The notes: generated by a model not told the origin, from the letters alone. Positions 1 to 53,989 are shown, counted from the stretch's first letter. The stretch is 64,000 bases of DNA from a virus (IMGVR_UViG_3300020183_000033:1-64000); one strand, 5' to 3'. A program made the numbers and translations.

Positions 1-522
1 ACAGGAGCTACTGGTATTCAAGGTATTCAAGGTGAATTCGGTGCTACTGGATTTACAGGAGCTACTGGTATTCAAGGTATTCAAGGCGAGTTCGGTGCTA
101 CTGGATTTACAGGAGCCACTGGTTTAGATGGTAATAATGGTAGCATCGGATCTACTGGGTTTACAGGTTCTACAGGAATAGGAACTCCAGGTGCTACTGG
201 CCCAGAAGGTTTTACAGGAGCTACTGGTACTGCAAGTTCAGCTGCTTACACATACTATACAGCTAGCTTTACTGCTTCATCTAATGATTATTATTGGTTG
301 GGTGCCACTGGTATTACAGTTACACTCCCTGCTTTACCAGCCAAAAATGATTTCGTTGGGGTTGCTAATGGTTCCACTGGTCCATTAAATAATTGCGTTA
401 TTGGAAGAAATAGTCAAAGAATTATGGGATTAGCTGAGGATTTAATAATCAATCAAACACATTTTGCATTTAAATTAGTTTATCATTTCGGTGCAACTGG
501 TTCGTGGAATTTAGGCGTCTAG
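1..522 (+). CDS. Collagen-like tail fibre/adhesin, C-terminal part (5' truncated by window)
   Basis: Frame 1 is open from base 1: G-X-Y repeats ([18 protein letters not shown]), then a T4-like fibre C-terminal domain (VTLPALP...[15 protein letters not shown]), stop TAG at 520-522. Confidence 0.8.
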
Positions 523-750
523 AATTGGAATAAATAGAAGCATGATATGGCAATAAATTTTCCAATGGAAAATAGTTTATTATGTTGACAGGAGCGGAGC
601 AAGAGTCAATAATAACACTACTCGTGCTGGTGGTATTGTTTCCGTAGGATATGTTCGTTTTATCTACAATCACGAAAAAAACTTATGCTTTAATCATATA
701 CTAAATATCTTTGTATTTGAGCTTGAAAGGTTTATAATAATAATAATAAG

Positions 751-1896
751 ATGCGTTTTCATATTCTTGGGCTCCCCCATACTGTAACTAACTCCGAATA
801 TACAGGCTGTGCTTATACACAAAAGGTATTAAAATTCGGTAAAATGATGAAGGCTCGTGGTCATGAGATTATTCACTACGGTCACGAAGATTCCAATCTG
901 ATCTGCGACGAACACGTCACAGTAACTACAAATAAAGACTTACAAATTGCCTACGGTAATTATGACTGGCGTAAGAACTTCTTTAAGTTCGATATGAACG
1001 ATCACGCTTACCAAACCTTTTATACTAACACAATCCGAGAAATCCAGAAGAGAAAACAGAAAAACGACTTCCTACTTCCGTTCTGGGGTTGGGGGCACAA
1101 ACCAGTCTGTGACGCCCATCAAGACACAATTGTTGTTGAACCAGGTATCGGCTACGCCACAGGTCAGTTTGCTCAGTGGCGCATCTTTGAATCCTACGCT
1201 ATCCGTTCGGCTGTAGGCGGTCACGAGGCTGTTGGGACGTGTAAAGAGAACTGGTATCACGTGGTTATCCCCAACTACTTTGATCCAGCAGAGTTCGAGT
1301 TCTCTCAGGAAAAAGAAGACTACTTCTTGTTTATGGGTAGAATCTATCCAGGAAAGGGCATCGATGTTGTTTGGCAGGTTTGTGAAAAGCTTGGGTTAAA
1401 ATTAAAAATAGCTGGTCAAGGTGACTTAACAGAGTTCGGTTACAGAGAAATTCCAGGTCAAATCGAGAAGATCGGTTATCTTAACTCAACCGATCGTAAG
1501 AAAGTTCTATCAAAGGCTAAAGGTTTCTGGCTTCCTTCAATGTTTAATGAGCCATTTGGTGGTGCATCTATTGAAGCTTTATTCGCTGGTTGCCCTATTA
1601 TCACTACCGACTGGGGTTCACACGCAGAGAACAATCTTCACGGTGTTACAGGCTACCGTTGTCGAACGTTTGAGCAGTTCTCGTGGGCCGCAAAGAACAT
1701 CGACAAAATTAACCCGAAGGATTGTCACGACTGGGCGACAAAAAACTTTACGCTCGACCGCGTTGGCGACATGTACGAAGAATACTTTCAGATGGTTTTG
1801 GACGTATATACTGGAAAGGGTTGGTATCAGGAACACCCTGAACGCACTAACCTCGATTGGCTAAAACGCCACTACCCCGAGGGGATTCTAAAATAA
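751..1896 (+). CDS. Glycosyltransferase, GT-B fold (GT4-like)
   Basis: FMGRIYPGKG and PSMFNEPFGGASIEALFAGCPIIT (E-x7-E) motifs. Confidence 0.85.
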   Translation: MRFHILGLPHTVTNSEYTGCAYTQKVLKFGKMMKARGHEIIHYGHEDSNLICDEHVTVTTNKDLQIAYGNYDWRKNFFKFDMNDHAYQTFYTNTIREIQKRKQKNDFLLPFWGWGHKPVCDAHQDTIVVEPGIGYATGQFAQWRIFESYAIRSAVGGHEAVGTCKENWYHVVIPNYFDPAEFEFSQEKEDYFLFMGRIYPGKGIDVVWQVCEKLGLKLKIAGQGDLTEFGYREIPGQIEKIGYLNSTDRKKVLSKAKGFWLPSMFNEPFGGASIEALFAGCPIITTDWGSHAENNLHGVTGYRCRTFEQFSWAAKNIDKINPKDCHDWATKNFTLDRVGDMYEEYFQMVLDVYTGKGWYQEHPERTNLDWLKRHYPEGILK

Positions 1897-1908
1897 GAAT
1901 ACAAACTT

Positions 1909-2481
1909 ATGAATATTATAGAATTCCGTTACGTTAACAATTCTGATAAGTTTGATGATTCTTATCCTCACTGGTCCAGGAAGTATGAATACCCGACTGT
2001 GATATCAGAAATTAAAAGGAGGTTACCAGAGTTAAGTTTTTCTCCTAAGATCCACAATTCTTCATGGGGTTTTGATATTGAACACCACACAAAGTTTAAG
2101 AATAATTTGGAAAGAGAGTTCTTTCCTCATAATGTTACCAATAGTGACATTGTTTTAAGTGGCGCACCTAATACCTGTTACCACGATATTACTCAGCCGC
2201 CGAACGAAAACTTTAAAGAACAATTTGATATCGTTCTTAATATTTCTGCTTTAGAAGAGATAGCAGGAAACCACGACGACTACCTTGATAATCTTTATGC
2301 GCAGGTCAGACCAGGAGGTTATTTGATCTGCACCTTTGACTATCCAGGCTTGAGGTTAAGTAAAGAACGTATGAGTCTGTTGGTTCCTCCGATTAACACA
2401 AACAAAATTGGTATTGACTTTGACTTCTGGTTTGGTAGAGCCGAGTTAAACGTACTTTTATTCATTGCAAAGAAAATATGA
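1909..2481 (+). CDS. SAM-dependent methyltransferase-like protein
   Basis: FDIVLNISALEEI and VRPGGYLICTFD resemble class I MTase motifs. Confidence 0.55.
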   Translation: MNIIEFRYVNNSDKFDDSYPHWSRKYEYPTVISEIKRRLPELSFSPKIHNSSWGFDIEHHTKFKNNLEREFFPHNVTNSDIVLSGAPNTCYHDITQPPNENFKEQFDIVLNISALEEIAGNHDDYLDNLYAQVRPGGYLICTFDYPGLRLSKERMSLLVPPINTNKIGIDFDFWFGRAELNVLLFIAKKI

Positions 2482-3059
2482 ACATCCAGAATTTCTTAAA
2501 AACAAATAATATTAATGGGTTTCATAATAACGGCGGGACTGATAAGAACACTGAACACTCCTACTGCGATATCTATCAGAGTTTCTTTAATAGGTTTATT
2601 CCTGCGGATTTTCCTTCTAACATCTTAGAGATAGGCACATATAAAGGAGGGTGGGCATACACAATGCACCAACTTCTGCCTAACTCTATGATCTACACAA
2701 TAGACATCGAAGATAACTTTGATAAAATGCACGCTTCTAAAATGGCGGAACGGTTTGTTCCTAAACTCGCTGACGCTTATAATAAAGAAGTTGTATCTTC
2801 CTTTGGTGATATTAAATTTGATCTTATTATCGAAGACGGTCCTCATACCTTTGAAACACAGAAGTGGGCTATAAAGAACTACGTGGATCTTCTTAAAGAA
2901 GAAGGATTGATGTTGATCGAAGACGTCAGAAAAGAAGAAGTTAATGAACTGTTAGAAGCAGTTCGCGCTGGTTACAATACGAGAGAGTTCGACCTTAGAA
3001 ATAACAAAGGGAGGTGGGACGACATTATCATTGCTATCTCGAAAAGAGAACTTGGATGA
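2478..3059 (+). CDS. Class I SAM-dependent methyltransferase (sugar O-methyltransferase-like)
   Basis: ILEIGTYKGG, IDI, FDLIIEDGPH, LLKEEGLMLIED. Confidence 0.8.
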   Translation: MNIQNFLKTNNINGFHNNGGTDKNTEHSYCDIYQSFFNRFIPADFPSNILEIGTYKGGWAYTMHQLLPNSMIYTIDIEDNFDKMHASKMAERFVPKLADAYNKEVVSSFGDIKFDLIIEDGPHTFETQKWAIKNYVDLLKEEGLMLIEDVRKEEVNELLEAVRAGYNTREFDLRNNKGRWDDIIIAISKRELG

Positions 3060-3661
3060 AACTCGCTTACTGTTTAAACGTTTACGAAAACGAAAAAAGT
3101 TTAAGAAAAAACATTCAGATCATAAATGATAGTTTTAATAATCCACCGATATTTGTTGCTTCTAATGGAATAATAGTAAAAGACCTTCCTCCAAACGTTC
3201 AGTTTAAGCATTGGGGAGCTAATCAAGGTTGGCAGTTGGGTGCTTTAAATTCTACTTTGCAGGCTCTTAAAATGGCAGCAGAGAGTTTAGTGGACCCAGA
3301 GAATTATAATTTGATTTTTTGTCACGATGATGTATATCCTTGTGGTTTGTATAAGATAAATCATCTGCTCTCTTTATTATCTCAATACGACTTAATTGTT
3401 AGAAAACATACAGGTAGGTGGACTAATAATGATCCTCTTTGCCCTTATTATATGCTAGAAGATTTTATGCTTTCTGGCAGAGTTCTAAATAAGTTCAGAG
3501 ATATTCCTGTTGTTCGTTGGTTAAATTATTCCGCCGAAGAAACGTTTGGTGGTATCTTATATGAGATGAAATTACATACAATGGAGATTTGTTTCTCAAC
3601 AGGTTCTATTGCTCTCGCTGAAAATGAAATGGGGTTTTATCATGAAAATTATAAGTCCTGA
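3056..3661 (+). CDS. Putative glycosyltransferase (GT-A-like)
   Basis: ATG 3056 overlaps upstream stop; N-terminal beta strand, HDDVY DxD-like motif; cluster context. Confidence 0.5.
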   Translation: MKLAYCLNVYENEKSLRKNIQIINDSFNNPPIFVASNGIIVKDLPPNVQFKHWGANQGWQLGALNSTLQALKMAAESLVDPENYNLIFCHDDVYPCGLYKINHLLSLLSQYDLIVRKHTGRWTNNDPLCPYYMLEDFMLSGRVLNKFRDIPVVRWLNYSAEETFGGILYEMKLHTMEICFSTGSIALAENEMGFYHENYKS

Positions 3662-4184
3662 TCCTAATTACACAGGCTGGGAAATAGCACCCGAGTGTTT
3701 AGTTAAGATACAAGAGATAATCAAAGAAAAACAATTCAAGAAACTTGATATAGTAGAATTTGGTTCTGGTAAGTCGACCGAGACAATTTCTAGATTTAAA
3801 CAAGAAAATAATATTCCAGGTGTAATTGATTCCTTTGATGCTGATCTAACTTATGCACATCCATTAGCAAAGATTAGACAGATTAAATCCTACGACGGAA
3901 GACCAATTCAATTTGGAAACGATTATTCTTTCTACGACCTTGAAGAAGGTGATTTAACTTCTTTGGAATACAATCTTGTTGTATTAGACGGTCATCACGG
4001 CCACGGTAGAAGTGTTGCTTGGTCGTACTTAAAAGGAAGATTAGCGAACGGATGTATTGTTCTGATAGATGACTTCGATCATTATCCTTTTGAACAAGAT
4101 TTCTTAAAAGTTTTTCCAGGATCAATTTTATTAGATAAACATCACGAGTACGATAAGAGGTGGTTAATTTATGAAGTTGTTTAA
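3642..4184 (+). CDS. SAM-dependent methyltransferase-like protein
   Basis: IVEFGSGKST, LVVLDG, LANGCIVLIDD. Confidence 0.7.
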   Translation: MKIISPDPNYTGWEIAPECLVKIQEIIKEKQFKKLDIVEFGSGKSTETISRFKQENNIPGVIDSFDADLTYAHPLAKIRQIKSYDGRPIQFGNDYSFYDLEEGDLTSLEYNLVVLDGHHGHGRSVAWSYLKGRLANGCIVLIDDFDHYPFEQDFLKVFPGSILLDKHHEYDKRWLIYEVV

Positions 4185-4878
4185 TGAAGAGATTATAAAA
4201 TTCTATGAGATGTTAAAGAGCGATAAGAAGTTTTCTATCGCTCGTTATGGCGACGGCGAGATGATCGCGATGCGAGGAGAAACAATCTCTTCTGGTTACG
4301 GTGAATGGAATACCAACGGAGAAGATCCGCGTTATTCGATTGCCAGAGAATATCTAGAAACCTCTTTTAAGTTTAAAGATCCAGGGTATTATGTTGGTAT
4401 TGTCTGCCCTTGTTGCCAAGGAATGGATAACTTTAACAAGATGAAACAAGAGTCAGGACAAGAAGACTCTCAGTTGACTTATGCTAATATTTTTGTAAAC
4501 TCGAACTACGAATTCTTTGTCCAGAACTTTATTCCTCTGTTTACAAATAAGCAGGTAGTCTTAGTTGCGAACAAAACTTCACAAGTTCAGAACTTACCTT
4601 TTTCTGGTGGGTTCATTCCTGTGGAGTACGACGCATGGGTGAAAAACTTGGATCTAGTTGATATTTTAGAACGATCTAATACAACGGATAAGCTGTATCT
4701 TTTCGCTTGTGGCCCTTTAGGAAAGATCCTCGCACAGCGCCTATGGGCTGTTAATAAGAACAATACTTACTTGGATATTGGTTCCACTCTGCACCCTTGG
4801 TTGCGATCGGATATAAATATAAGGGGTTACTACACAACAGACCCTTTCTGGAAAACTAAAATTTGTAATTGGGGTTGA
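4171..4878 (+). CDS. GT-D fold (DUF1792-like) glycosyltransferase
   Basis: SIARYGDGE and LFACGPLGK...YLDIGS motifs typical of GT-D. Confidence 0.7.
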   Translation: MKLFNEEIIKFYEMLKSDKKFSIARYGDGEMIAMRGETISSGYGEWNTNGEDPRYSIAREYLETSFKFKDPGYYVGIVCPCCQGMDNFNKMKQESGQEDSQLTYANIFVNSNYEFFVQNFIPLFTNKQVVLVANKTSQVQNLPFSGGFIPVEYDAWVKNLDLVDILERSNTTDKLYLFACGPLGKILAQRLWAVNKNNTYLDIGSTLHPWLRSDINIRGYYTTDPFWKTKICNWG

Positions 4879-4880
4879 TA

Positions 4881-5624
4881 ATGAACGACATCACAGTAGT
4901 ATTGAATGGATACCGAAGGCCGCAGAATCTACAGAAACAAGTAGATGCTGTCTTAAACCAAACCGTAAAACCAACTGATATTTTTTACTGGCAGAACTCG
5001 ATGCCTGGAGTTGAATACGACATTCAAACAGCAAACTCCAACTGTGTCTCTGCCTTTTCCTCAGTAAACTTTGGCGTTTGGGCGAGATTTGCCTTTGCCT
5101 TAAACGCAAGAACAAACTGGGTTTGTGTTTTTGATGACGATACAATCCCAGGAACTAAGTGGTTCGAGAACTGCCTAGAAACTTACAAAACCAACCCAGG
5201 TTTACTCGGAACGATCGGTGTGATCTTTAACCACGCTGACTATGGTGCAGAACGCAGAGTAGGATGGGATAATCCAAACGAAACAGTAGAAAAGGTTGAC
5301 ATCGTTGGTCACAGCTGGTTCTTCCACCGCGATATGTTGTCGGTTCTTTGGAGAGAACTTCCTCCTATTGATCATGCCTATCACGTTGGAGAAGACATTC
5401 ACTTCTCTCACATGATCCAGAAGTATACACCCTATGCTACTTGGGTCCCGCCTCATCCTGTTTCTGATAAGGAAATGTGGGGATCTCTAGAAGGTTGGAG
5501 ATTAGGTGGTGATGCTGTAGCAACTGCAGGTAACGGAGGTATTCCAGCAATGGCTAAGTACCTTCGTAGAGCATATGACAATGGCTTTCAATTTGTACTA
5601 GGTGATAAGGTTCAAAAATACTAA
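4881..5624 (+). CDS. Glycosyltransferase, GT-A fold (GT2-like)
   Basis: ITVVLNGYRRP, VFDDD, GEDIHFS. Confidence 0.8.
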   Translation: MNDITVVLNGYRRPQNLQKQVDAVLNQTVKPTDIFYWQNSMPGVEYDIQTANSNCVSAFSSVNFGVWARFAFALNARTNWVCVFDDDTIPGTKWFENCLETYKTNPGLLGTIGVIFNHADYGAERRVGWDNPNETVEKVDIVGHSWFFHRDMLSVLWRELPPIDHAYHVGEDIHFSHMIQKYTPYATWVPPHPVSDKEMWGSLEGWRLGGDAVATAGNGGIPAMAKYLRRAYDNGFQFVLGDKVQKY

Positions 5625-6526
5625 TGAAAAAAGTTCTATTCTACACCCAAAACCGCTGGGCATACGGCAGCATACATCATGGGCTTTGTAAAGAACTATA
5701 CAAGCACGGTATTCTAGCTAATCTTTTAGACTGGCGTTTAGAAATAACTCCTCAGGAATGGCAACTCTTGAATGAGTCCTATGACTTATTTGTTACTAAT
5801 CCTGAAGCAGTTTTAGCTCTGGCTAACTGCGGAATCCCGTTAAAAAAGATAGCCACTGTTGCGCACGGTCAGTGGGATATGCTCTTGGCTCAAAAAGAAT
5901 CAAATAATCTGGACTTCTATCCTCATCTGTATAAGTTCGGCGTTGTTTCAAACATTCTAAAACAGAAGTCAGAAGAGTTTAATATCTCAGTTAGAACACC
6001 TGATGTAGTGAAGTTTGGTGTTCACTTTGATATGTTTTATCGCAAGCCTTCAGATAGACTACAAAATATTGGCTACGGTGGAGCTAGAACTACTCAGAAT
6101 TTTTTTGGTATAGAAATTAAACGAGCACACCTTGTTTCTTCCGTGATTCAACAAACCCCGCTAAAAACAGTTGATCACAACTTCTATAACTGGTTATGCA
6201 TGCCCGCATACTATGCAAAATTAGACGCGCTAGCTGTTTCTTCTATCGAAGAATCTGCTGGTTTACCTTCTATGGAAGCGGCTGCGGCTGGTCGTTTAGT
6301 TCTTTCTACTCCTGTCGGGTACTTTGAAGAACACGGACCTAAAGGCGGTGGTGTTGTACTTCCGTTACCAGAAGAAGAATACTGTAAATCATTGTACGAG
6401 AATCTAGCTCACTTCTATAATAACCCAGAAGAATATAAAAAGAAGTGTATCCAGATTCAAGACTATGCCAGAGAACATTATGACTGGTCTAAGCATATTG
6501 AAGGTTGGGTCAACTTCTTGTCATGA
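5624..6526 (+). CDS. Glycosyltransferase, GT-B fold (GT4-like)
   Basis: SSIEESAGLPSMEAAAAGRLVLSTPVG and C-terminal YDW motif. Confidence 0.8.
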   Translation: MKKVLFYTQNRWAYGSIHHGLCKELYKHGILANLLDWRLEITPQEWQLLNESYDLFVTNPEAVLALANCGIPLKKIATVAHGQWDMLLAQKESNNLDFYPHLYKFGVVSNILKQKSEEFNISVRTPDVVKFGVHFDMFYRKPSDRLQNIGYGGARTTQNFFGIEIKRAHLVSSVIQQTPLKTVDHNFYNWLCMPAYYAKLDALAVSSIEESAGLPSMEAAAAGRLVLSTPVGYFEEHGPKGGGVVLPLPEEEYCKSLYENLAHFYNNPEEYKKKCIQIQDYAREHYDWSKHIEGWVNFLS

Positions 6527-8677: not shown

Positions 8678-10369
8678 ATGGCATTTCAAGTAAGCCCAGG
8701 AGTAAACATAAGCGAGATCGACCTAACAACGGTCGTCCCTGCCGTTGCAACTTCAGTCGGTGCAATCGCTGGACCATTTCAATGGGGACCAGTAAAAGAA
8801 ATTAAGACAATCGCTAATGAAGTCGAACTGGTTGAAATGTTTGGTAAGCCAAACAACGACACGGCCAATAACTTCTTTTCAGCTGCAAACTTCCTCTCAT
8901 ACAGCGGCAATCTAAAGGTTGTCAGAGTTGTAGGCTCTGGTGCATTAAATGCATCAACAGGTGCAACAGGCTTCCTAGTAGAAAACGAAACAGACTATGA
9001 ACAGAATCATTATTCTGGTATTTCAGGAACAACTTGGATTGCCAGGTGTCCTGGTGCACTCGGAAACTCCTTGAAAGTATCTATTGCTGATGCCGCAACA
9101 TACAGCACCTGGACCTACAAGAATAATTTTCAAACAGCACCTGGGACATCAAATTACGCTGCCAAGACTAACTCCTATGCCAATGACGAAATCCATATTA
9201 TAGTTATTGACGAAGACGGTCAGTTTACTGGAACAGCTGGAACAATTTTAGAAAAATATGCTTTCGTTTCAAAGGCATCAGATGCTAAAACCGAGACAGG
9301 CGAAGGCAACTACTATAAAGATGTAATTAACAAGAAGTCACAGTATATCTGGTGGGGCAATCATACAGCCGCCGTTAGTGCAACTGGTACTGCTTGGGGT
9401 TCAGTAATTCCTGGGGCCACTGGTTTTAAGGGTGCAACTGGTCCTATCGAAGAATCTCTTAATATCGGTGTAGATGCTAATTCACCTACTTCTGGTGATA
9501 TTACAAATGGTTACGATCTGTTCCTATCAGAATCAGTTGACGCAAATTTAATTATTGCTGCAGATAATGGAGCTACAACTGTTAAACACCTTGTTCAGAA
9601 CATCGCTGAAGTTAAGAAAGATTGTGTTGTATTCTTCTCTCCGCTCAAGGCTGATGTAGTAGACAATGTTGGTTCTGAAGCAGCTGATCTCGTAACCTAT
9701 TCACAAAGTACCGTAAATGTCAACTCTTCATACGCTTTCATGGACGGTAACTGGAAGTATCAGTATGACAAGTACAACGACGTTTATCGTTGGATTCCAA
9801 GCAACGGCGATGTAGCTGGTCTCTGTGCTCGCACTGATCAAACAAATGATCCTTGGTTCTCGCCAGCTGGTTATAACCGTGGTGTAATCAAGAACGTTAC
9901 AAGGATTGCTTGGGACGCTACAAAGGCAGAACGCGACACGATCTATCAAGCTGGTGTCAATCCGATTATCTCTCAGCCAGGAGTTGGAACTGTTCTATTT
10001 GGTGATAAAACAGCTCTGGCTAAACCTTCTGCTTTTGACAGAATCAATGTTCGTAGATTGTTCATTGTTCTTGAAAAGGCGATTGCAACTGCTGCTAAGT
10101 TCTCTCTCTTCGAACTAAACGACGAATTTACACGTGCTCAGTTCGTTGGTCTAGTTGAACCTTTTCTACGAGATGTAAAGGGCAGACGCGGTATTATTGA
10201 CTTTAAGGTTGTTTGTGACGAAACAAACAATACTGGGCAGGTCATTGATACCAACTCGTTTGTTGGTGATATCTATATCAAGCCAGCGCGCTCGATCAAT
10301 TTTATCCAGCTAAACTTTATCGCTGTTAGAACAGGCGTTGAATTTAGTGAAATCGTTGGAAAGTTTTAA
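8678..10369 (+). CDS. gp18: Tail sheath protein
   Basis: SPGV..EIDLT start, PWFSPAG, FDRINVRRLF, KPARSINFI. Confidence 0.95.
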   Translation: MAFQVSPGVNISEIDLTTVVPAVATSVGAIAGPFQWGPVKEIKTIANEVELVEMFGKPNNDTANNFFSAANFLSYSGNLKVVRVVGSGALNASTGATGFLVENETDYEQNHYSGISGTTWIARCPGALGNSLKVSIADAATYSTWTYKNNFQTAPGTSNYAAKTNSYANDEIHIIVIDEDGQFTGTAGTILEKYAFVSKASDAKTETGEGNYYKDVINKKSQYIWWGNHTAAVSATGTAWGSVIPGATGFKGATGPIEESLNIGVDANSPTSGDITNGYDLFLSESVDANLIIAADNGATTVKHLVQNIAEVKKDCVVFFSPLKADVVDNVGSEAADLVTYSQSTVNVNSSYAFMDGNWKYQYDKYNDVYRWIPSNGDVAGLCARTDQTNDPWFSPAGYNRGVIKNVTRIAWDATKAERDTIYQAGVNPIISQPGVGTVLFGDKTALAKPSAFDRINVRRLFIVLEKAIATAAKFSLFELNDEFTRAQFVGLVEPFLRDVKGRRGIIDFKVVCDETNNTGQVIDTNSFVGDIYIKPARSINFIQLNFIAVRTGVEFSEIVGKF

Positions 10370-12678: not shown

Positions 12679-13197
12679 ATGGCAACCATACAACCACTCA
12701 AAGAAGATCAGAACAGATCGGTTCTGTTAGTTACTGGAACTGGATCGGAAACAGGTACAATTGTTGTTAATGGTGCTGCATTAACAGGTGCAATTAACGG
12801 TGCAACAGGCCCCCTGCCTTTTTACAATTTTCAAGTAGAATCAATTAATTGGTCGTTCCCTTATGACAAACCAGGTTATTTATCATGGCAAGGAGCGACT
12901 GGTTTTTTTGTGATGAACGGCACTGGCCAGGTTAGACTAAAGAGAGATTTTTCTTCAACAGCATATAACTACGTCCAGAGTCCATACTATGGTGCAACAG
13001 GCGTTGCTGGTAAGACTGCTTCGTATTACACCAGCACTGGTACAACCTGGGCTGGCGCTACTGGATTTGCAACAACTTCAGGTAACATTGTTCTCAACTA
13101 TGCTGGAACAGACGGATATTCATTTGTTATCACGGTTCTCAAGAATACCGATACCTATGACAGATACTTCTCGGTGGAACCAGTACTAAGCTTGTAA
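12679..13197 (+). CDS. Putative virion protein with four GATG motifs
   Basis: G/T-rich, beta-rich ORF in the head operon. Confidence 0.55.
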   Translation: MATIQPLKEDQNRSVLLVTGTGSETGTIVVNGAALTGAINGATGPLPFYNFQVESINWSFPYDKPGYLSWQGATGFFVMNGTGQVRLKRDFSSTAYNYVQSPYYGATGVAGKTASYYTSTGTTWAGATGFATTSGNIVLNYAGTDGYSFVITVLKNTDTYDRYFSVEPVLSL

Positions 13198-15361: not shown

Positions 15362-16639
15362 ATGTCACAACATTTAATCGAAAAGTGGAAGGAAGTTCTA
15401 GACCATCCTGGTCTGGCTCCTATCTCAGACAACCATAAGAAGGCAGTAACAGCTATCCTTCTAGAAAACCAGGAAATCGACGCAGTCCAGCAAAGCCGCA
15501 TTCTTTCAGAAGTCAATGATGCTTCTGCTGTTCTCGGTGTAGCTGCTTCTGGCGGTTCCTTCGACCCAATCCTCATTGCTCTAGTTCGTCGCGCTATGCC
15601 TCAGCTAATGGCTTATGATGTCTGTGGTGTTCAGCCAATGAGCATGCCAACAGGCCTTATTTTCGCCATGAAGGCACGCTACGGTTCTGGTACAACCTCG
15701 AACGGCGAAGCCCTCTACGTCAATCCAAACATTGGCGCCACTGGCTTCTTCGGCGACGCAAATACAGCATACTCTGGTACAGGCACCTCACAAGGAACTG
15801 ATCCATTTGATGCTGCTTATGCAACAGGTACTGGTCTCTCGACAGCTTCTGGCGAAAGTGTAACACCCGCTGAATTGGGTTTCACAATCGAGAAGGTTAC
15901 AGTAACAGCCAAGACCCGCGCTCTCAAGTCCGAATACTCAATCGAACTTGCTCAGGATCTCAAGGCTGTTCACGGTCTCGATGCTGAATCAGAACTTTCA
16001 AACATTCTTTCTGCTGAAATTATGTTTGAAATCAACCGTGAAATCATGCGTACCATGTATGCTATCGCTAAGACTGGTGCTCAAAAGGGTACAACAACTG
16101 CTGGTCAATTTGACCTTGATACCGATTCTGATGGCCGTTGGTCAGTAGAACGCTTTAAGGGTCTTATGTTCCAAGCAGACCGCGATGCTAACTTTATTGC
16201 CCGTGACACACGTCGCGGCAAGGGTAACTTTATCGTAGTTTCTTCAGACGTTGCTTCTGCTCTTGCAATGGCTGGCAAGCTCGATTACGCTCCTGCTCTT
16301 TCAACCGACCTCAACGTCGACGAAGCTCAGGATACTTTCTGCGGTGTTCTTAACGGCAAGTATCGTGTCTATGTTGATCCATACTTCGCTTCCACCACAA
16401 ACGACCTCATGATGGTTGGTTATAAGGGCAAGTCCCCATATGACGCAGGTATGTTCTTCTGTCCATATGTACCACTCCAGCAGGTTCGTGCAGTTGATCC
16501 TAACACCTTCCAGCCAAAGATTGGTTTCAAGACCCGCTATGGTCTAGTTGGCAATCCTTACTTCGGTTCTTCCGCTGGTGGTTTGGATGCAGGTACAAAC
16601 GGTTACTATCGTAAGATTGTTGTTAAGAATCTTATGTAA
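15362..16639 (+). CDS. gp23: Major capsid protein
   Basis: LVRRAMP, GVQPM, ELAQDLKAVHGLDA, FQPKIGFKTRYG. Confidence 0.97.
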   Translation: MSQHLIEKWKEVLDHPGLAPISDNHKKAVTAILLENQEIDAVQQSRILSEVNDASAVLGVAASGGSFDPILIALVRRAMPQLMAYDVCGVQPMSMPTGLIFAMKARYGSGTTSNGEALYVNPNIGATGFFGDANTAYSGTGTSQGTDPFDAAYATGTGLSTASGESVTPAELGFTIEKVTVTAKTRALKSEYSIELAQDLKAVHGLDAESELSNILSAEIMFEINREIMRTMYAIAKTGAQKGTTTAGQFDLDTDSDGRWSVERFKGLMFQADRDANFIARDTRRGKGNFIVVSSDVASALAMAGKLDYAPALSTDLNVDEAQDTFCGVLNGKYRVYVDPYFASTTNDLMMVGYKGKSPYDAGMFFCPYVPLQQVRAVDPNTFQPKIGFKTRYGLVGNPYFGSSAGGLDAGTNGYYRKIVVKNLM

Positions 16640-16692: not shown

Positions 16693-17232
16693 TTACCTCA
16701 ACCCTAGTGCTGTTCTTCCTGGTGTCTTGTGATCCTTATGCATAAAAGTTTTATATCGGTGACAATTCGCGCAAAGAGTTTGAATATTTTCGTCTGAGTT
16801 ATTAGAAGGGTTTCCGTCAACGTGATCTACTTCTAGCATGATGTCGTGTGCAATTTTAGCCGTGCAAACATACCCAAGCCTTCCGTCTTTGTTCTCGCAA
16901 AATGACTTCTTACCTTGTCTTTTAATCTTGCTCTGCCTAAAGTATTCATTCAATGAAATTCCTCTTTTTGCAGCTACTTTTTCGTTGCACAATCTTTTGT
17001 ATTCTTTCAAAGTGAGTCCTTGACTCTTAGCCGTTTTAACTTCGGTGCAACGGTTGCACAACTTATGAAAATACTTTTTTCCATTGCCCGTCATCGAAAT
17101 CTTGCACATTTTGTCACAACCAGCAGTCGTGCAGATTGGTCTATTGATTTCTTTGTTCATATCCAGTAGCTCCAGTAAACCCAGTGGCTCCAGTAAACCC
17201 AGTAGATCCATCGAATTGATTTCTTTGTTCAT
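16693..17232 (-). CDS. HNH endonuclease
   Basis: LEVDHVDGNPSNN...NIQTLCANCH. Confidence 0.85.
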   Translation of the reverse strand: MNKEINSMDLLGLLEPLGLLELLDMNKEINRPICTTAGCDKMCKISMTGNGKKYFHKLCNRCTEVKTAKSQGLTLKEYKRLCNEKVAAKRGISLNEYFRQSKIKRQGKKSFCENKDGRLGYVCTAKIAHDIMLEVDHVDGNPSNNSDENIQTLCANCHRYKTFMHKDHKTPGRTALGLR

Positions 17233-17484: not shown

Positions 17485-18486
17485 TTATCGGACCTTAAAG
17501 CAGGTGACTTCAGCAACGTCACGGAAGTCTTCGTCTGAGTCGGCGAAGAGTATGATCTTTGCCAGTTTACCAACCATACGCAGCGACAGTTCGCGCAGCC
17601 GAGTATAGTTTTCTTCGATAAAGTTCATCAGATCCGAGGTCTGGGTTTCAGACAAGCCAAGCGTGTAAGCCATGTCGGTGTTCTGAAGAACGTCCTTGAT
17701 GCGAAGCAGGTATTCGCGAGAAGAACCCATGTTGAGGTCGATGTAGAACGAACGAGAGATAAGAGCAGAAAAGTGCGGAGCCAGTTTGTTGCCCTGGTTA
17801 ATCATCTGTTCGAAGTTCAGGTTGGTGATGAATACGATCGAACCACGATACTCAAAAGAGTTCGGAATCTCTTCGCCGCATTCGTCTTCGAAACGCTTTT
17901 CCGATCGCCATGCCAGAACTCTTTTCTTCGAAGAATCAAGAGCAGCCTTCAACAAATTTAAGGAAACTTCGTCCTGGAAAGCAGAGTCGCAATCGTCGAG
18001 CAGGATGACCTGGTTTTCTTCGCGGTTTTCCCAGAGAAGTTTATAAAGGCCAGTCGCCTTCATAAAGCCACGAACGGCAGTGTACTGAATCTTTTCTTCG
18101 GATTCAGAAGATTCCAACAGACCTTCAATCGTATAGGTTTTACCAATACCAGCAGGACCAGAGACGATCATTGAGCGAACGTTGCCAGCGACAACGCCAT
18201 CAGCCATACGGTTCAGGGTACGGAACTTGCGACGTTGAGAAGTCAGCAATTCTTCGTCGGTCACGACAGGCTTGGAAACGGCAACAGCAGCAGTCACAGT
18301 AGTACCACCATTCTTGGTAAATTGAGAAATATCATAAAGGCCACGGTCAATTTTGTTGACGGTCAAAAAGCCAGGGTTCACACCATACTTTTCCCAGACT
18401 TCCATGAGATTCTTGCGAGTCACCTTGTCGCCGAACTTTTCACCGAGTTCGTTAATCATTTGCTGGCGGATTTCGTTAACCTTCAT
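17485..18486 (-). CDS. AAA+ ATPase with N-terminal putative DNA-binding domain
   Basis: GPAGIGKT Walker A, LLDDCD Walker B; probable start ATG 18486 below an early promoter. Confidence 0.8.
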   Translation of the reverse strand: MKVNEIRQQMINELGEKFGDKVTRKNLMEVWEKYGVNPGFLTVNKIDRGLYDISQFTKNGGTTVTAAVAVSKPVVTDEELLTSQRRKFRTLNRMADGVVAGNVRSMIVSGPAGIGKTYTIEGLLESSESEEKIQYTAVRGFMKATGLYKLLWENREENQVILLDDCDSAFQDEVSLNLLKAALDSSKKRVLAWRSEKRFEDECGEEIPNSFEYRGSIVFITNLNFEQMINQGNKLAPHFSALISRSFYIDLNMGSSREYLLRIKDVLQNTDMAYTLGLSETQTSDLMNFIEENYTRLRELSLRMVGKLAKIILFADSDEDFRDVAEVTCFKVR

Positions 18487-18499
18487 AACAATACTATCA

Positions 18500-18772
18500 T
18501 AGCACGAAAGTGCGACGAACACAAGGACTTTATTCCCTTTAGAATCAGTGACTTGACTGCAACTCGTTGATTCTAAAGGGAAAGATTTTTTAGACTTTTT
18601 TAGCCTTTCTCGCGTGCACGTATGCATGCATATAATAGGGTGAAAACCAAAACTTTTTTTATCATTTGTTTTCAATGGTTTACGCACAAGTCGTTGATTC
18701 TAAAGGGAATAAAGTTCTTGTGTTTTTTGGAAGTCTATGCTATGATAGTTCTATAAGGTTGATTGAAACAAT
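18500..18772. promoter_or_regulatory. Divergent early promoter module with two palindromic IHF-like elements
   Basis: CCCTTTAGAATCA-N20-TGATTCTAAAGGG (18535-18580), a second copy ending 18707, TTGTGT-17-TATGAT rightward promoter and a mirror leftward promoter. Confidence 0.75.
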
Positions 18773-46943: not shown

Positions 46944-46945
46944 GT

Positions 46946-48872: not shown

Positions 48873-49058
48873 ATGGACTACAGTTTCTTATTCGGGAAAA
48901 CTGTTCAGGAAGCGTGTCAGTATTTAAAAGATATTGGCATTCCCTTCCGCGTTTCTTCAGACAACAACATGCCGACGCTTATAACTTCTGATTATAATGT
49001 GTCTCGTGTTAACCTACAAGTAAAAAATGGTGTTGTACAAAAGATATATATAGGCTAA
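48873..49058 (+). CDS. Small protein resembling I78/potato-I protease inhibitor fold
   Basis: GKTVQEA...ITSDYNVSRVNLQV.NGVV. Confidence 0.5.
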   Translation: MDYSFLFGKTVQEACQYLKDIGIPFRVSSDNNMPTLITSDYNVSRVNLQVKNGVVQKIYIG

Positions 49059-49078
49059 AAAAATTATAAAAAGCCTTG

Positions 49079-49218
49079 CCTTTTAGAATCAATGAGTTAC
49101 AGCTAAGTCACTGATTCTAAAAGGAAATAAAGTTCTTGTGTTCTTCACGCTGCGCGCGAGGAATACTAAAAAAAAGTCAAAAAAAATTCTTTGACTTTGG
49201 GCGTTAGTACGGTATACT
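49079..49218 (+). promoter_or_regulatory. Palindromic IHF-like element and early promoter
   Basis: CCTTTTAGAATCA-N20-TGATTCTAAAAGG; TTGACT-16-TATACT. Confidence 0.75.
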
Positions 49219-49277
49219 AATAAAGTAGTAGTTGATAAGCTACTATGAGTAGTTTAATTTGATAGGAGAAAAAAATT

Positions 49278-49487
49278 ATGTCAAATCTGTCGCAGAATGA
49301 AAAGATTACTTCTGTTCTAGAAAGGGGAGGTTCGCTTACTGCTGCGCAGGCGCGTTCCCGCTTCGGCGTACGGAATCTTCGTGCTCGTATCTATGACCTC
49401 CGTGAAGAAGGTCTTGATATTCGTACCACTATGAAGGCAACTCGTACTTCTAGTAAGCCAGTCGCTTTCTATTCACTAGAAGCTTAA
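49278..49487 (+). CDS. Small winged-helix DNA-binding protein
   Basis: LTAAQARSRFGVRNLRARIYDLREEG. Confidence 0.8.
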   Translation: MSNLSQNEKITSVLERGGSLTAAQARSRFGVRNLRARIYDLREEGLDIRTTMKATRTSSKPVAFYSLEA

Positions 49488-49550
49488 CTTTGTTCATACC
49501 ATGAAGCCCGAGAGCACCCAAGTGCTCTTGGGCCACCTTTTTGAGGTAAT

Positions 49551-49823
49551 ATGTTTTCTTATAATGAAGATAAACAGTTAGAAAAAATCAAGAAGTATAT
49601 TGAGACAACCTATGGTCAACATTATGTCTCGACTGTAGACGGCAAACCTGTGCAGGTTCAAGATCTCTTAATTGCATCAGGCCATGCTGAATCGTTTTAT
49701 GTTGGTAATGCAGCGAAGTATTTACTTCGATATGGTAAAAAGGAAGGTCAGAACGAGAAAGATCTGTTAAAGGCAGCGCATTATATTACGTTGCTCTTAA
49801 ACTTAAATCATCCCGTGAAGTGA
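49551..49823 (+). CDS. DUF3310-like protein
   Basis: TYGQHY, GNAAKYLLRYGKK, DLLKAAHY. Confidence 0.75.
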   Translation: MFSYNEDKQLEKIKKYIETTYGQHYVSTVDGKPVQVQDLLIASGHAESFYVGNAAKYLLRYGKKEGQNEKDLLKAAHYITLLLNLNHPVK

Positions 49824-49824
49824 T

Positions 49825-50154
49825 ATGCAAAAATTTAATGGCCCTGTTGAATTTAGAAATCATATTGTTCTTTCTTTAATGAAGGGTCCGTGTTATGCAA
49901 TCTTTCAGAAGAAAGATGGAACAGTAAGACACATGGTGTGTACCTTACATAACCAGTTGATTCCTCAGAACACAGAAGAAGATCCAACTGTAAGTAAGAC
50001 TTATAAACAAAGATCAGATAAAAGCATTTCCGTTTATGATCTTGAGAAGTGTCAATGGCGTTCTTTTGTTGTTGAAAATATAAAGTTTTTCAAAGAACTA
50101 AATAAATTTGACGAAACAACTAAGAGTACCTTAAAGGAGAAATATAATGTTTAA
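49825..50154 (+). CDS. SH3-like (WYL_2-type) phage protein
   Basis: FQKKDGTVRHMVCT...VYDLEKCQWRSF. Confidence 0.75.
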   Translation: MQKFNGPVEFRNHIVLSLMKGPCYAIFQKKDGTVRHMVCTLHNQLIPQNTEEDPTVSKTYKQRSDKSISVYDLEKCQWRSFVVENIKFFKELNKFDETTKSTLKEKYNV

Positions 50155-50548
50155 ACTAATTGTTGTATTCTTGATTTTTTCTGCTATTTCTTTTGGTCAA
50201 ACTTATTGGCCTTCTGGTTCTGAACATTTATATTACAGAAATTATTATTATAATAATTTCTATAGAAACTATTATCGGAACCTAAATTATCGTTATTACA
50301 ACAACTTGCCTGGGATCTCAGGAGCAGCTACTACTGCTATTGGCATTGGCGCTGGTTTGGCTGGTTATATTATCGGTTCTAAAACTGCACCGAAGAAACA
50401 AGATGCACCAGTTTATCAACAAGATGCATCGGTTTATCAAAATATCGAATGCAAAGAATTTCCAGTAAAGGTTAAGGTCGAAGGAAAAGAAGTTGACGCC
50501 AAGATTCAAAAGTGCCGTGTCGGTGATGGACCTTGGCAGATTCCTTAA
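50147..50548 (+). CDS. Exported/membrane protein, Tyr/Asn-rich
   Basis: Signal peptide, YYRNYYYNNFYRNYY tract, Gly-zipper-like helix. Confidence 0.6.
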   Translation: MFKLIVVFLIFSAISFGQTYWPSGSEHLYYRNYYYNNFYRNYYRNLNYRYYNNLPGISGAATTAIGIGAGLAGYIIGSKTAPKKQDAPVYQQDASVYQNIECKEFPVKVKVEGKEVDAKIQKCRVGDGPWQIP

Positions 50549-50581
50549 ATCTAAAAGAAAGCGAATTTAAACGAGAACAGT

Positions 50582-50857
50582 ATGGTTCTAAATTCTGAAA
50601 ATTTCACCAGCGAGACTTCTTCAGGAGAATCGCTGGTTGTTTTTTCTTCCTCCAACTCTGCGAAATTAGCACCAGTTCTCGCCAAACTTTCTTTCCATCC
50701 CAGAGTCTTTACTCTTGATATTGAGACAAATCGAGATTTGGCGGCTAACTACAATATCAGAATTACACCGATTGTATATCATTTTAAAGAAGGCAACATT
50801 ATAAATACCTATAAGATCAACCAACTAGAAGAACTCATATGTACACTAAAATATTAG
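50582..50857 (+). CDS. Thioredoxin-fold protein lacking CxxC
   Basis: LNSENF, LAP.L, LA..YNI...P...FKEG. Confidence 0.6.
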   Translation: MVLNSENFTSETSSGESLVVFSSSNSAKLAPVLAKLSFHPRVFTLDIETNRDLAANYNIRITPIVYHFKEGNIINTYKINQLEELICTLKY

Positions 50858-51549
50858 AAGGCGTAAAGGTAATATGCCTCTGTGCTTTTGTTTGGATTAT
50901 TTATGACATTTCTTTAACTGTTAAACATACCAGTCAAGAATTAGTTTTAATCGCCAAGGAAACAAAAAACGAAACCCTCCAAGAAGTAACTTCTATCCGA
51001 AAAGATACCTTTTCTTTTCTTGATAGAACAACAAACAAAATAGAAAACAGGTTATCTTCCGTAGAAGCAAAAACGTTTAATCGCTTAGACTCTATAGAAG
51101 ATAACCTTTTCGCAGAAGTTCGTCTCGCGCGCAAGGACTTAAATTCTCAGTTAACTGTCACTAATAATACAGTCAAGAACCTCGCGGAAGAATATTCTAC
51201 CTTACCAAAGGAGATAAGGTTAATCGCTTCTAGATTAGAAGAACAAACTAATTGCGAGATAAACGAATTGTGCTGGCAAAATATGACAACTGATTTATTG
51301 ATCGACACAAGAAACGTTGTCAGAGATGGTTCCAAAACTTTCAGAATAATAAATAATTCTGTACCGAAGTTGGTAGAAGATTCAACAAAAGTTTCTTCTG
51401 CCGTTGCAACTAACCTTCCTATTGTGACCAAAAATGTCGCTGAGACTTCTGATCACATTAGGAGAATTACTAAACCGAGATGGTATGACAAGTTCATTAC
51501 CTATGGCCTGAGCGGTGCCTTATTATACGTGACCGCTTCAAAACCTTAA
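50839..51549 (+). CDS. Membrane-anchored coiled-coil protein (possible lysis accessory)
   Basis: N-terminal TM, coiled coil, hydrophobic C-terminus; late promoter at 50800. Confidence 0.55.
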   Translation: MYTKILEGVKVICLCAFVWIIYDISLTVKHTSQELVLIAKETKNETLQEVTSIRKDTFSFLDRTTNKIENRLSSVEAKTFNRLDSIEDNLFAEVRLARKDLNSQLTVTNNTVKNLAEEYSTLPKEIRLIASRLEEQTNCEINELCWQNMTTDLLIDTRNVVRDGSKTFRIINNSVPKLVEDSTKVSSAVATNLPIVTKNVAETSDHIRRITKPRWYDKFITYGLSGALLYVTASKP

Positions 51550-51558
51550 GGAGACATC

Positions 51559-51903
51559 ATGAAAATAATCGATTTTTTCAAGAAGTTATTTAGTTCTTAT
51601 ACAAGCAAGAAGATCGGTTCCGTTCTATCTATTCTAGATAAGGTCGGTCCTCTTGTGGAGAAGGCATATCCTATTGTTAAGCGCATTGCAGAACTCACGC
51701 CTAACAAGACAGATGATCAGATTCTAGCAGTATACAAACAATACGGTGTGGAAAATTACTTCAAAACAGGAGCAGATCGAGCAATTCTTCTGCGCGATCT
51801 AGCAAAGGTTGTTCTTATTCAAGTAGAAAATATTAACCCTGTTGCCGAATACATTTTAAACCTAGCTGTCGAATTGGCTTACGCTAAATTTAAAGAAAAG
51901 TAG
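51559..51903 (+). CDS. Hypothetical protein
   Basis: AAGGAG RBS. Confidence 0.65.
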   Translation: MKIIDFFKKLFSSYTSKKIGSVLSILDKVGPLVEKAYPIVKRIAELTPNKTDDQILAVYKQYGVENYFKTGADRAILLRDLAKVVLIQVENINPVAEYILNLAVELAYAKFKEK

Positions 51904-51910
51904 ATAATCC

Positions 51911-52189
51911 GTGGAACAAAACTTAAAAACATTTTGCAATAGTAAGTGGGAGATCTTCGTTAGAAGTATAGCGAGTGAAGGTGGCAATATTATTGTTTTG
52001 TTGTTTTTGATTCTTGTTCTTGGAATTTTTGTTTTATTGAAATTTGATGGTGCCACTGAGCAGCTGTACTTTGTACTCGGTGCATTAGTTGGTGTATTAA
52101 AAGGAAGGATAGCCTCTAATCCTAATCAAATAGATATTAAAACAGAAAAAACTATTTCTTTACTTGAGGATAATTCTAAGGTAGAATAG
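51911..52189 (+). CDS. Two-TM small membrane protein (holin-like)
   Basis: Two hydrophobic helices, charged C-terminus. Confidence 0.5.
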   Translation: MEQNLKTFCNSKWEIFVRSIASEGGNIIVLLFLILVLGIFVLLKFDGATEQLYFVLGALVGVLKGRIASNPNQIDIKTEKTISLLEDNSKVE

Positions 52190-52214
52190 TTATATAAGAG
52201 AAGGTTATTACTTG

Positions 52215-52413
52215 ATGATAAATTTGAAATATTACAAGCTGAATTTAGAAGTGCGCGATCCTTTTTTCGCAACTTCTAATTCAGCTTGTTTTGATTTATG
52301 CGTACATCTTACCGAATACACTCCCGTAAAAGTTTATGATGCAAAAAGTAGTTAGTGATAAACCAACAACAAAGACTGATTATATCGGCGGCTTCGGTTT
52401 AACAGGGAAGTGA
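52215..52413 (+). pseudogene. dut: dUTPase remnant with internal deletion
   Basis: ATSNSACFDL (motif I) stops early; another frame encodes KTDYIGGFGLTGK (motif V); motifs II-IV absent. Confidence 0.7.
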
Positions 52414-52416
52414 TAC

Positions 52417-52830
52417 ATGACAGAAAAGCAGCGGTTTGAATCTTTTAAGAAATGGGTAATAGAAGACGATATCACCGTAGAAGTTGATTCAACTTATTAC
52501 GAGTTCGCCAAGACTCCCGTAGAAGACAGAATCATCAATGGTCAAGCTGGTTCTGATGGATATATTATTTTGTACAAAGATTCAAAAGAAAAAAATTATA
52601 ATATGTTGACCTCTCTTCTTATTCACGAATACGGACATGTCGTTGAGTGGAGGGATAAAGGTAGAGATAACCATAGTGAAAAACAAGCGTGGAAAACTGG
52701 TATTGAAAATGTACCAGAAGAATATTGGCCTCCCACGCTAAAAGAAGATTGCAAACTTTGCCTTGGTTCTTATGGATACAAGAGGTTTAATTGGTTAGAT
52801 AGGCTCGTGACACCTTTGGCGACGTCTTAA
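52417..52830 (+). CDS. HExxH metallopeptidase-like protein
   Basis: LIHEYGH...E..AW. Confidence 0.7.
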   Translation: MTEKQRFESFKKWVIEDDITVEVDSTYYEFAKTPVEDRIINGQAGSDGYIILYKDSKEKNYNMLTSLLIHEYGHVVEWRDKGRDNHSEKQAWKTGIENVPEEYWPPTLKEDCKLCLGSYGYKRFNWLDRLVTPLATS

Positions 52831-52897
52831 ATTCCCTAAATAGTATTATGGTCCTGAATGATGTATTTGAGAATTGCTAATACTCAAGGAGAATTAA

Positions 52898-53989
52898 ATG
52901 CCTACTCACGGTAATAAAGATATTGTAACTTTTGCAAGTAAATACGATATCACCACAGGCGGAGTAATCACCCGTCAAACTGGCACGGATAGCTTTTTCA
53001 CAAAGGCAACTCTGGCTGGAGACTCAATTAATTACGCTGGTCAAGAATATGTAATCAAGTCAGTTGACTCAGCAACACAAGTAACTGTTCGCCTCGCAGA
53101 ATTCGGCGGCACAATTACTGGTGCAACAGGTGCTACTGTTTTCGTTCAGCAGAAACCAAAGCACGTAAAGTTTATCACAGATCCATCTTCAATCACTGGT
53201 CGTAAAGACGTTTACGGTGTTTCAACTGGAGCGACTGGCACTTTCTCACCAACAGAACAACAAGTATCTAGAACCTACAACAATCACCCACAACACGCTG
53301 GTTGGGTAAGAAACATCAATGGTTATGGCGGAATTGATTCTGTTGCAATCACAAATAGTGGTTCTGGTTATCGCGGAGTTGCTCCAACTGTTTCTTTCTC
53401 TACAACAAGAGGCGCAACAGGTGTTCTAGCAGCTTCTGGTACAGCTGTATTGTCTAACAACAACTCAGTATCAAGCGTAACCTTTAGCAGCAACGGATTG
53501 TATACAACAAGCCCAGCAGATTGGGTTGGTGGTGCAACTGGTCTGGTAAATCCAGTATCAGTTTCATTTACTGCTCCTGCAAATCTTGTTTATAACAATT
53601 CTACTAATGTTAACACTACTTCTAAGACAATCACATTCTCGACACCAACCTTTCTACAGAACGGCGATCCAGTAGTTTATGGTGGCGCTTCTGGCGCAAC
53701 TGGTGTGACTGGTCTAACAGTAGGAACAACTTACTTCGTAAGATCCACTGGCGCAACTGGTATTCAGTTGTTTACAACTGCTATTGGTGCACAAACTGGC
53801 GCAACTGCTGCTCTAGTTGCTATTACATCTGACGGTGCACCTGGTTTCGGTGTGTTTCTCCAAGGTGTAACTGCTACAGGTTCGCCTTTGATGGGTGGTC
53901 GCTTCGGACGTCAGTTAAACGAAACCTTGGTAGCGTTCAAGAACATTACCAATGATGCTGCTGACGACGCTGCTTTCCCTGATACCTAA
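52898..53989 (+). CDS. Putative virion structural protein, Gly/Thr-rich, six GATG motifs
   Basis: HAGWV, ITNSGSGY...PTVSF, LQNGDPVVY, ETLVA motifs seen in T4-like structural proteins. Confidence 0.7.
   Translation: MPTHGNKDIVTFASKYDITTGGVITRQTGTDSFFTKATLAGDSINYAGQEYVIKSVDSATQVTVRLAEFGGTITGATGATVFVQQKPKHVKFITDPSSITGRKDVYGVSTGATGTFSPTEQQVSRTYNNHPQHAGWVRNINGYGGIDSVAITNSGSGYRGVAPTVSFSTTRGATGVLAASGTAVLSNNNSVSSVTFSSNGLYTTSPADWVGGATGLVNPVSVSFTAPANLVYNNSTNVNTTSKTITFSTPTFLQNGDPVVYGGASGATGVTGLTVGTTYFVRSTGATGIQLFTTAIGAQTGATAALVAITSDGAPGFGVFLQGVTATGSPLMGGRFGRQLNETLVAFKNITNDAADDAAFPDT

Follow-up and report, generated by a model that had tools for sequence, protein, structure and literature searches.

GATG, a peptide motif concentrated on outward-facing virion proteins of an uncultured marine T4-like phage, as a candidate tag for Thr O-glycosylation

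The tetrapeptide GATG is extremely enriched, by selection acting at the peptide level, on exposed virion proteins encoded by the viral contig IMGVR_UViG_3300020183_000033. The stretch analysed here (termed the window, 64,000 nucleotides) comprises the first 64 kb of this single 89,971-bp contig, which is classified as linear in IMG/VR and has a CheckV completeness estimate of ~50 %. By sequence, its source is assigned to the uncultured marine T4-like myoviruses, because the major capsid protein resembles those of Pelagibacter phage HTVC008M (57 % identity) and of Methylophilales phage Melnitz and T4-like cyanophages (54–56 %). Selection has maintained GATG as a short linear motif in the outward-facing proteins of this phage clade. 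Usually followed by a hydrophobic residue, it may serve as acceptor for Thr O-glycosylation by the phage's own, probably late-expressed glycosyltransferase (GT) cluster at 751–6526, our preferred reading, to which we give an even chance of being correct.

Greedy calling of open reading frames (ORFs) on the contig yielded 110 ORFs with 28,898 aa. Overall, the 90-kb contig encodes 45 GATG, which are confined to 9 ORFs, as compared to 0.46 occurrences expected from the composition of the proteome and 0.85 when expectations are summed over each protein's own composition, i.e. an excess of ~50–100x over chance. It is the top-ranking tetrapeptide of the proteome, its 11 anagrams occurring 0–3 times each. 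Single-residue variants comprise GSTG (8), GFTG (5), GATA (4) and SATG (3), with all others found at most twice; since GSTG is the sole frequent variant and GASG occurs only twice, the Thr is kept. On the DNA level, GGNGCNACNGGN has 45 forward matches, all in frame and none out of frame, as well as 2 out-of-frame matches on the opposite strand. These 45 sites are encoded by 30 distinct 12-mers with a codon use resembling background; selection therefore acts on the peptide and not on a DNA repeat, as the sequence-only reading had proposed from the differing codons. The missing Thr codons ACC and ACG were considered as a sign of DNA-level constraint and discarded, because codon choice before Gly is biased in this way throughout the genome. 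Most sites (37 out of 45) locate outside runs of at least five G-X-Y triplets, and 8 within such runs. A hydrophobic residue follows GATG at 28 of the 37 non-collagen sites (p = 1e-5 against a background of 0.40). In the fibres, the triplets most often found after GAT (GFT, GFI, GLT, GIQ) likewise begin with G-F, G-L or G-I; as judged from the sequences, a hydrophobic +1 position in non-collagen and fibre sites would fit one recognition element.

Within the window, the following five ORFs harbour GATG, and all others have none:

1–522, plus strand: 3' part of a gene for a collagen-like fibre, truncated by the contig start; 9 GATG and 3 GSTG.
8678–10369, plus strand: tail sheath protein, homologue of T4 gp18; 3 GATG at residues 95, 246 and 252 (nt 8960–8971, 9413–9424 and 9431–9442).
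12679–13197, plus strand: 172-aa protein, its gene flanked by those for portal and prohead protease; 4 GATG at residues 41, 72, 105 and 126.
15362–16639, plus strand: major capsid protein, gp23-like; one GATG (NIGATGFF) at residues 125–128 (nt 15734–15745).
52898–53989, plus strand: 363-aa protein encoded beside an Hsp20 gene, outside the structural modules; 6 GATG.

Beyond the window, the same contig encodes a gp7-like protein (78059–81094) with 10 GATG, a gp8-like protein with 2, a 2019-aa protein with 7 and the N-terminal part of a fibre with 3. The counts given beforehand for the window (9, 3, 4, 1 and 6, with two in the C-terminal part of the fibre next to the 3 GSTG) were reproduced without exception, and the claimed enrichment on virion-type proteins proved real, since Gly/Thr composition does not explain 45 sites versus 0.46–0.85 expected. 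The absence of GATG from replication, metabolic and early proteins was likewise observed; it carries no weight, however, because well under one site is expected by chance in these non-virion proteins. Not a single GATG is found in the 3,692 aa of the recognised inner and assembly proteins (hub, tube, portal, scaffold, protease and proteins resembling gp5, gp6, gp27 and gp48), where the bearers' density outside collagen-like runs predicts 24.9 (Poisson P ~1e-11). GATG is confined to peripheral, outward-facing virion proteins, in variable regions: the fibre, sheath, capsid protein, 172-aa head-operon protein, gp7-like and gp8-like wedge proteins, 2019-aa protein and 363-aa protein.

ORF 1–522 is homologous to GATG-rich fibres of relatives, which possess 34–322 triplets with a GAT share of 17–58 %. 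Its residues ~1–80 form uninterrupted G-X-Y runs (triplets GAT, GFT, GIQ and GST), and seven of its GATG are located in G-X-Y repeats, the other two (residues 101 and 164) in the non-collagen, globular C-terminal part. In the sheath protein, all three sites fall into the non-conserved region 94–260, which is flanked by segments aligning to residues 4–93 and 340–656 of T4 gp18 and corresponds to gp18 residues ~94–339; we take the latter stretch to be the outer, protease-resistant domains in the gp18 structure of Aksyuk et al. 2009. An AlphaFold 2 (AF2) model of the sheath protein (predicted local distance difference test score, pLDDT, of 75.7) places the sites in loops beside short strands. The capsid site aligns to residues 149–152 of T4 gp23, inside the I-domain linker (aa 132–160) that leads to the surface-protruding I domain (PMC9546572). 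In both sheath and capsid protein the sites lie in variable loops or inserts that relatives lack or have in a different form. Exposed insertions absent from T4 had been expected; the capsid site belongs to the I-domain linker region and not to a clear insertion of this kind.

The 172-aa head-operon protein has no family match in PHROGs or the protein Atlas. The 363-aa protein weakly matches part of a baseplate-wedge PHROG (E = 1e-6) and has the module I-x-[IV]-[TS]-N-x-G-S-G-Y in common with the gp7-like protein, which suggests that it belongs to the virion. Its gene has early/middle-type neighbours (Hsp20, phosphoesterase), a neighbourhood also kept by the homologue in the 89-kb relative G001, and no exact late-promoter box was found upstream of 52898–53989.

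The genes of most bearers lie in a plus-strand late block, the first part of which comprises baseplate genes (64–78 kb) and the genes for the gp7-like, gp8-like and 2019-aa proteins and the collagen-like fibre. The block goes on over the contig ends into the window with the fibre fragment (1–522) and an eight-gene cluster of GT and methyltransferase genes (751–6526), after which genes for terminase, sheath, tube, portal, the 172-aa protein, protease, scaffold and capsid protein follow in this order. The GTs are thus encoded beside virion structural genes, on the same strand and between fibre and terminase/sheath. The cluster consists of:

751–1896, plus strand: GT1a, GT4-type glycosyltransferase, first gene after the fibre (PF00534, E = 4.5e-17, 62.5 bits versus a cut-off of 26.4).
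1909–2481, plus strand: methyltransferase-like, weak (Pfam scan).
2478–3059, plus strand: Methyltransf_24 (Pfam, above cut-off).
3014–3661, plus strand: ORF without Pfam or PHROG match; weak GT2 lead from the protein Atlas.
3609–4184, plus strand: methyltransferase-like, weak (Pfam scan).
4171–4878, plus strand: GT-D-like (Pfam, 24.4 bits, below the cut-off of 27).
4812–4819, plus strand: T4-late-type promoter box TATAAATA, exact match, 50 bp upstream of the GT2 start.
4869–5624, plus strand: GT2, 251 aa (PF00535 at residues 15–124, 23.5 bits versus a cut-off of 23.3).
5624–6526, plus strand: GT1b (Glyco_trans_1_4, 27.0 bits versus a cut-off of 27).

Five GT-like and three methyltransferase-like genes had been named in this region from the sequence. 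Four of the former can be retained (those starting at 751, 4869 and 5624 at or above cut-off, that at 4171 below) together with the methyltransferase of ORF 2478, which is above cut-off; ORF 3014, however, matches no family, and two methyltransferases are weak. The TATAAATA box is also found upstream of the genes for sheath, tube, scaffold and capsid protein, and because it stands before GT2, the distal GT genes would be expressed late. Relatives of GT1a in the PDB are all of the GT4 type, 7FG9 and BGluT representing the nearest solved structures. Two Pfam models of the GT-D type (PF08759 and PF22882) match ORF 4171–4878 weakly, at 24.4 bits (GT-D-like) and 21.1 bits (GT-D) versus a cut-off of 27. 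This protein matched none of 50,697 phage records and, by sequence, nothing in the PDB, and GT1b has no PDB match by sequence.

For comparison with relatives, 80 IMG/VR loci around sheath homologues were used, yielding 81 sheath sequences including that of the present contig. Eight of the 80 loci are GATG-rich and the other 72 have 0–1 GATG. The form with scattered GATG constitutes a single clade of 9 out of the 81 sheath sequences (SH-aLRT 98 in a quick sheath tree). Within this clade the numbers of GATG are kept (sheath 2–3, small head protein 2–4, capsid 1) and the positions are shifted. Thus, relative L001 has a 172-aa orthologue of the head-operon protein with 4 GATG, and other sub-clades have 139-aa homologues with 2, one of them at an aligned position; the capsid GATG of the sister sub-clades is located ~14 residues earlier (numbering of the present protein) in the same variable loop, and 18 other relatives have none. 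One sub-clade (L021, L023, L028 and L035) possesses an 88-aa sheath insert carrying 2 GATG (e.g., L021:10001–11929). In G001, all 10 GATG reside in four proteins of the bearer type, 4 of them in the homologue of the 363-aa protein. Orthologues encoded in the 72 related loci and in Synechococcus phage S-CAM7, HTVC008M, Melnitz and S-PRM1 contain GATG at background level only (3–5 DNA matches in the last three phages); these proteins can thus fold without GATG. As a separate observation, the 88-aa sheath insert holds a module 'T-N-x-G-S-G-Y-T-S-A-P' that recurs in the gp7-like protein and in ORF 52898–53989, and comparable loci of other phages are dominated by poly-Gly (GGGG) tetrapeptides.

Three lineages of the clade (the present contig, L001 and G002) have contigs that extend into this region, and each of them encodes homologues of GT1a, the GT-D-like protein and GT2; a homologue of GT1b is found in the present contig and L001. 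Outside the clade, GT1a shares 62–63 % identity with proteins of the Synechococcus phages S-CAM7 and ACG-2014f, as compared to 79 % with that of G002. At least six gene arrangements, among them that of the cultured cyanophage S-CAM7, place GT1a directly next to a GATG-containing ORF. These neighbours may be collagen-like or not and include short (158–190 aa) proteins that are largely or wholly non-collagen. Among 80 GT1a loci, GATG is found nearby in 26 of the 27 closest (L094–L120, 71–85 % identical), and of five long GT1a contigs without GATG nearby, four hold 23–170 matches elsewhere. The cluster of GT1a-anchored loci typically starts with GT1a, and two to three of GT-D-like, GT2 and GT1b lie distally in most longer loci. 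The middle of the cluster (window 1909–4184) differs in gene content among close relatives (L094–L120, G002) and resembles glycan-diversity islands. In S-CAM7 (NC_031927.1, 12914–20410; L090), two collagen-like ORFs with 62 and 22 GATG (gp014 and gp015) are immediately followed by the GT1a orthologue (gp016), after which come genes for a hypothetical protein and then for a 2OG-Fe(II) oxygenase, which might represent a collagen-type hydroxylase. Some GT1a homologues are encoded near other high-copy repeats (L165, GTLT/NITS ~15–19x; L158, RGPL/ATDT 22x), which might be alternative substrates or unrelated.

Taken as an acceptor for Thr O-glycosylation, GATG could have originated from a GAT-rich collagen-like fibre with adjacent GT1a, a common pairing in marine T4-like phages. 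In the present clade the tetrapeptide would then have spread to loops and inserts on the surface of the sheath, capsid, small head-operon, peripheral baseplate and large fibre-like proteins, and these would be glycosylated in the cytoplasm before assembly, such that the whole exterior becomes coated. On this reading the Thr would be modified, and by a sugar; GT1a or another GT of the cluster would start the glycan, and the methyltransferases would methylate it. A Thr acceptor served by the adjacent late GT/methyltransferase cluster, with derivation from the widespread fibre-plus-GT module, is the best explanation at the even chance given above. More tentative, at somewhat short of an even chance, is the complete scheme of a portable sequon G-A-T-G-(hydrophobic) for cytoplasmic O-glycosylation, taken from collagen-like fibres and later seeded into capsid, sheath and peripheral baseplate loops, with the whole T4-like exterior bearing a variable, probably methylated glycan coat set by the swappable middle of the cluster.

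Several results weigh against O-glycosylation by the cluster. Because the carriers of scattered GATG form one clade on the sheath tree, the trait appears to have one origin and its association with the GT cluster would count as one evolutionary event. Although GT1a and fibres with GATG are both present in S-CAM7, no GATG is found in the sheath, capsid, gp7 and gp8 proteins of this phage. The closest solved relatives of GT1a are cyanobacterial small-molecule GTs (7FG9, a glucosylsucrose synthase, and tetrahydrobiopterin glucosyltransferase), and a Pfam scan revealed no TPR or other peptide-binding domain in any protein of the cluster. The hydrophobic +1 residue equally suits a structural role as turn followed by strand, and exposure of the capsid site rests on the alignment with T4, the AF2 model from 17 sequences being unusable (mean pLDDT 41). 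Furthermore, GATG-rich collagen-like ORFs are widespread in viral contigs: a pattern scan for GATG-collagen retrieved at least 120 loci (L176–L295, giant-virus bins included), and 117 of the 120 listed have no GT1a homologue in the fetched DNA, which marks GAT, as far as sequences tell, as a generic triplet of viral collagen-like proteins. The proposed co-occurrence of GATG with GT clusters in relatives holds for the present contig, L001 and G002, which belong to a single clade. GAT triplets alone were dropped as an indicator of GT1a, since only 3 of the 120 have it nearby. Such ORFs are common in contigs unrelated to this phage, including GVMAG, with up to 336 GATG in 8.6 kb (L189).

Alternatively, GATG could be a recognition tag that the adjacent GTs do not read, serving another modification of Thr (cross-linking, phosphorylation or hydroxylation-linked chemistry), a chaperone or assembly factor, or adhesive contacts, with the cluster acting on the host envelope/lipopolysaccharide (LPS), a small molecule or DNA. 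We regard this as rather unlikely, although it agrees with the small-molecule GTs nearest to GT1a among solved structures and with the scarcity of GT1a near most listed GATG-collagen loci. The GTs in the host-recognition region of pelagimyophages are moreover read as LPS modifiers (PMC7029224), phage DNA is also glycosylated by GT4-like enzymes (PMC13326640), and other enzymes may be missing from a contig that is ~50 % complete. On the other hand, GT1a stands immediately beside GATG ORFs in many different arrangements, and the cluster is situated within the late structural block and has a late-promoter box. No match to PF00303 (thymidylate-synthase-like dCMP hydroxymethylase) or PF13640 (2OG-FeII_Oxy_3 oxygenase) was detected on this contig, which covers about half a genome, and the missing half of the genome may hold a copy of the former; DNA modification or hydroxylation thus finds no support, an argument that is weak for the same reason.

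A purely structural, unmodified GATG, forming a glycine-flanked tight turn at the start of a beta-strand, borrowed from the fibre vocabulary and kept for folding or flexibility, is improbable. Such a role would account for the hydrophobic +1 residue at 28 of 37 sites, for the location of the sheath sites in loops beside short strands, and for the occurrence of several sites in the recurrent small domain 'N-x-G-S-G-Y', where other phages carry poly-Gly loops; GAT is, in addition, a generic collagen triplet. It is difficult to reconcile, however, with the near-absolute specificity for GATG (45, with GSTG as next variant at 8 and anagrams at 0–3), its presence in unrelated folds and its absence from inner virion proteins of similar composition. 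Orthologues in the 72 related loci and S-CAM7 fold without it, and within the clade positions turn over while numbers are maintained. Finally, an artefact of Gly/Ala/Thr-rich composition or of a copied DNA repeat is excluded for practical purposes by the expectation, in-frame and 12-mer counts: the bearers are indeed richer in G, A and T than average and 8 of the 45 sites lie in G-X-Y runs, but their own compositions predict 0.85 sites, 37 sites are outside collagen-like runs, and the 30 distinct 12-mers are all in frame, with 0 out-of-frame forward and 2 reverse matches.

Among the closest known systems, a precedent for O-glycosylation of GATG by the cluster is SgtA of Clostridioides difficile, a GT-A domain fused to TPR repeats, which adds O-GlcNAc to Thr of the G-P-T collagen repeats in BclA3 (PMC7157674). 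In both cases a GT gene is associated with a gene for a collagen-like protein; here the fibre gene ends at 522 and GT1a starts at 751. In the exosporium system the acceptor is the Y-position Thr of G-x-T, and the protein is glycosylated in the cytoplasm and ends up on the surface; for the phage, use of the acceptor is a prediction. Unlike SgtA with its GT-A domain and C-terminal TPR, the sole GT2 of the cluster (4869–5624) has no TPR match, the conserved neighbour of the fibre is a GT-B enzyme (GT4-type) and the triplet is GAT instead of GPT. A further difference is that single copies of the tetrapeptide are found here in globular proteins of the capsid, sheath and baseplate.

Mycobacteriophage GTs encoded beside structural genes reportedly modify virion proteins, leading to glycan-coated particles (Freeman et al. 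2023, Cell Host Microbe); in these siphoviruses the glycans are said to reside on C-terminal extensions of capsid and tail-tube subunits, with no defined tetrapeptide. The likeness lies in phage-encoded GTs beside the structural genes, with modification of virion proteins predicted for the present phage. The differences are that here the tube carries no site, that the candidate sites are internal loops with a strict four-residue motif and that the phage is a T4-like myovirus. The chlorovirus PBCV-1 encodes enzymes that glycosylate its capsid protein Vp54 at non-canonical sites, methylated sugars included. The predicted system would share with it an own cytoplasmic glycosylation machinery with methyltransferase activity and the major capsid protein as target; in contrast, PBCV-1 is a eukaryotic virus with N-linked glycans on Asn, and the enzymes are unrelated as far as compared. 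GT-D/DUF1792 enzymes extend O-glycans on serine-rich-repeat adhesins, which are surface proteins, and the likeness of ORF 4171–4878 to them consists of matches below cut-off only. The module of S-CAM7 and ACG-2014f shares an orthologous GT, but in S-CAM7 GATG stays within the collagen-like genes; no published function was found for this combination of GT1a and collagen-like fibre.

No published account of a GATG sequon, of cyanophage collagen together with GT or of cyanophage O-glycosylation was found in the literature. Should GATG prove to be a genuine sequon, phage virion glycosylation would have its first defined acceptor motif, and T4-like marine phages their first system of this kind. Many GTs in the host-recognition regions of pelagic myoviruses, now read as LPS modifiers, would then have to be re-interpreted. 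The motif would also provide a sequence marker for sugar-coated virion surfaces, with bearing on adsorption, grazing/aggregation, stability and antigenicity of abundant ocean viruses, and the short transferable tag, combined with its enzyme, could be used to glycosylate proteins at chosen sites. The cultured S-CAM7, in which the orthologous GT stands beside GATG-rich fibres, allows a direct test of the idea.

Two further features of the contig were recorded. Both contig ends are located inside collagen-like fibre ORFs (window 1–522 and contig 89028–89969, the latter with 3 GATG and outside the window), and the assembly was probably broken within a repetitive fibre gene. Joining both fragments as one ORF was rejected because their frames do not meet (the final complete codon of the contig ends at 89969, and ORF 1–522 reads in frame from base 1). 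Directly after the major capsid gene, an HNH endonuclease ORF (16693–17232, minus strand) is followed by a 400-aa ORF of phrog_1250 (17485–18687, minus strand); this arrangement may reflect insertion of a homing endonuclease where the head operon ends.

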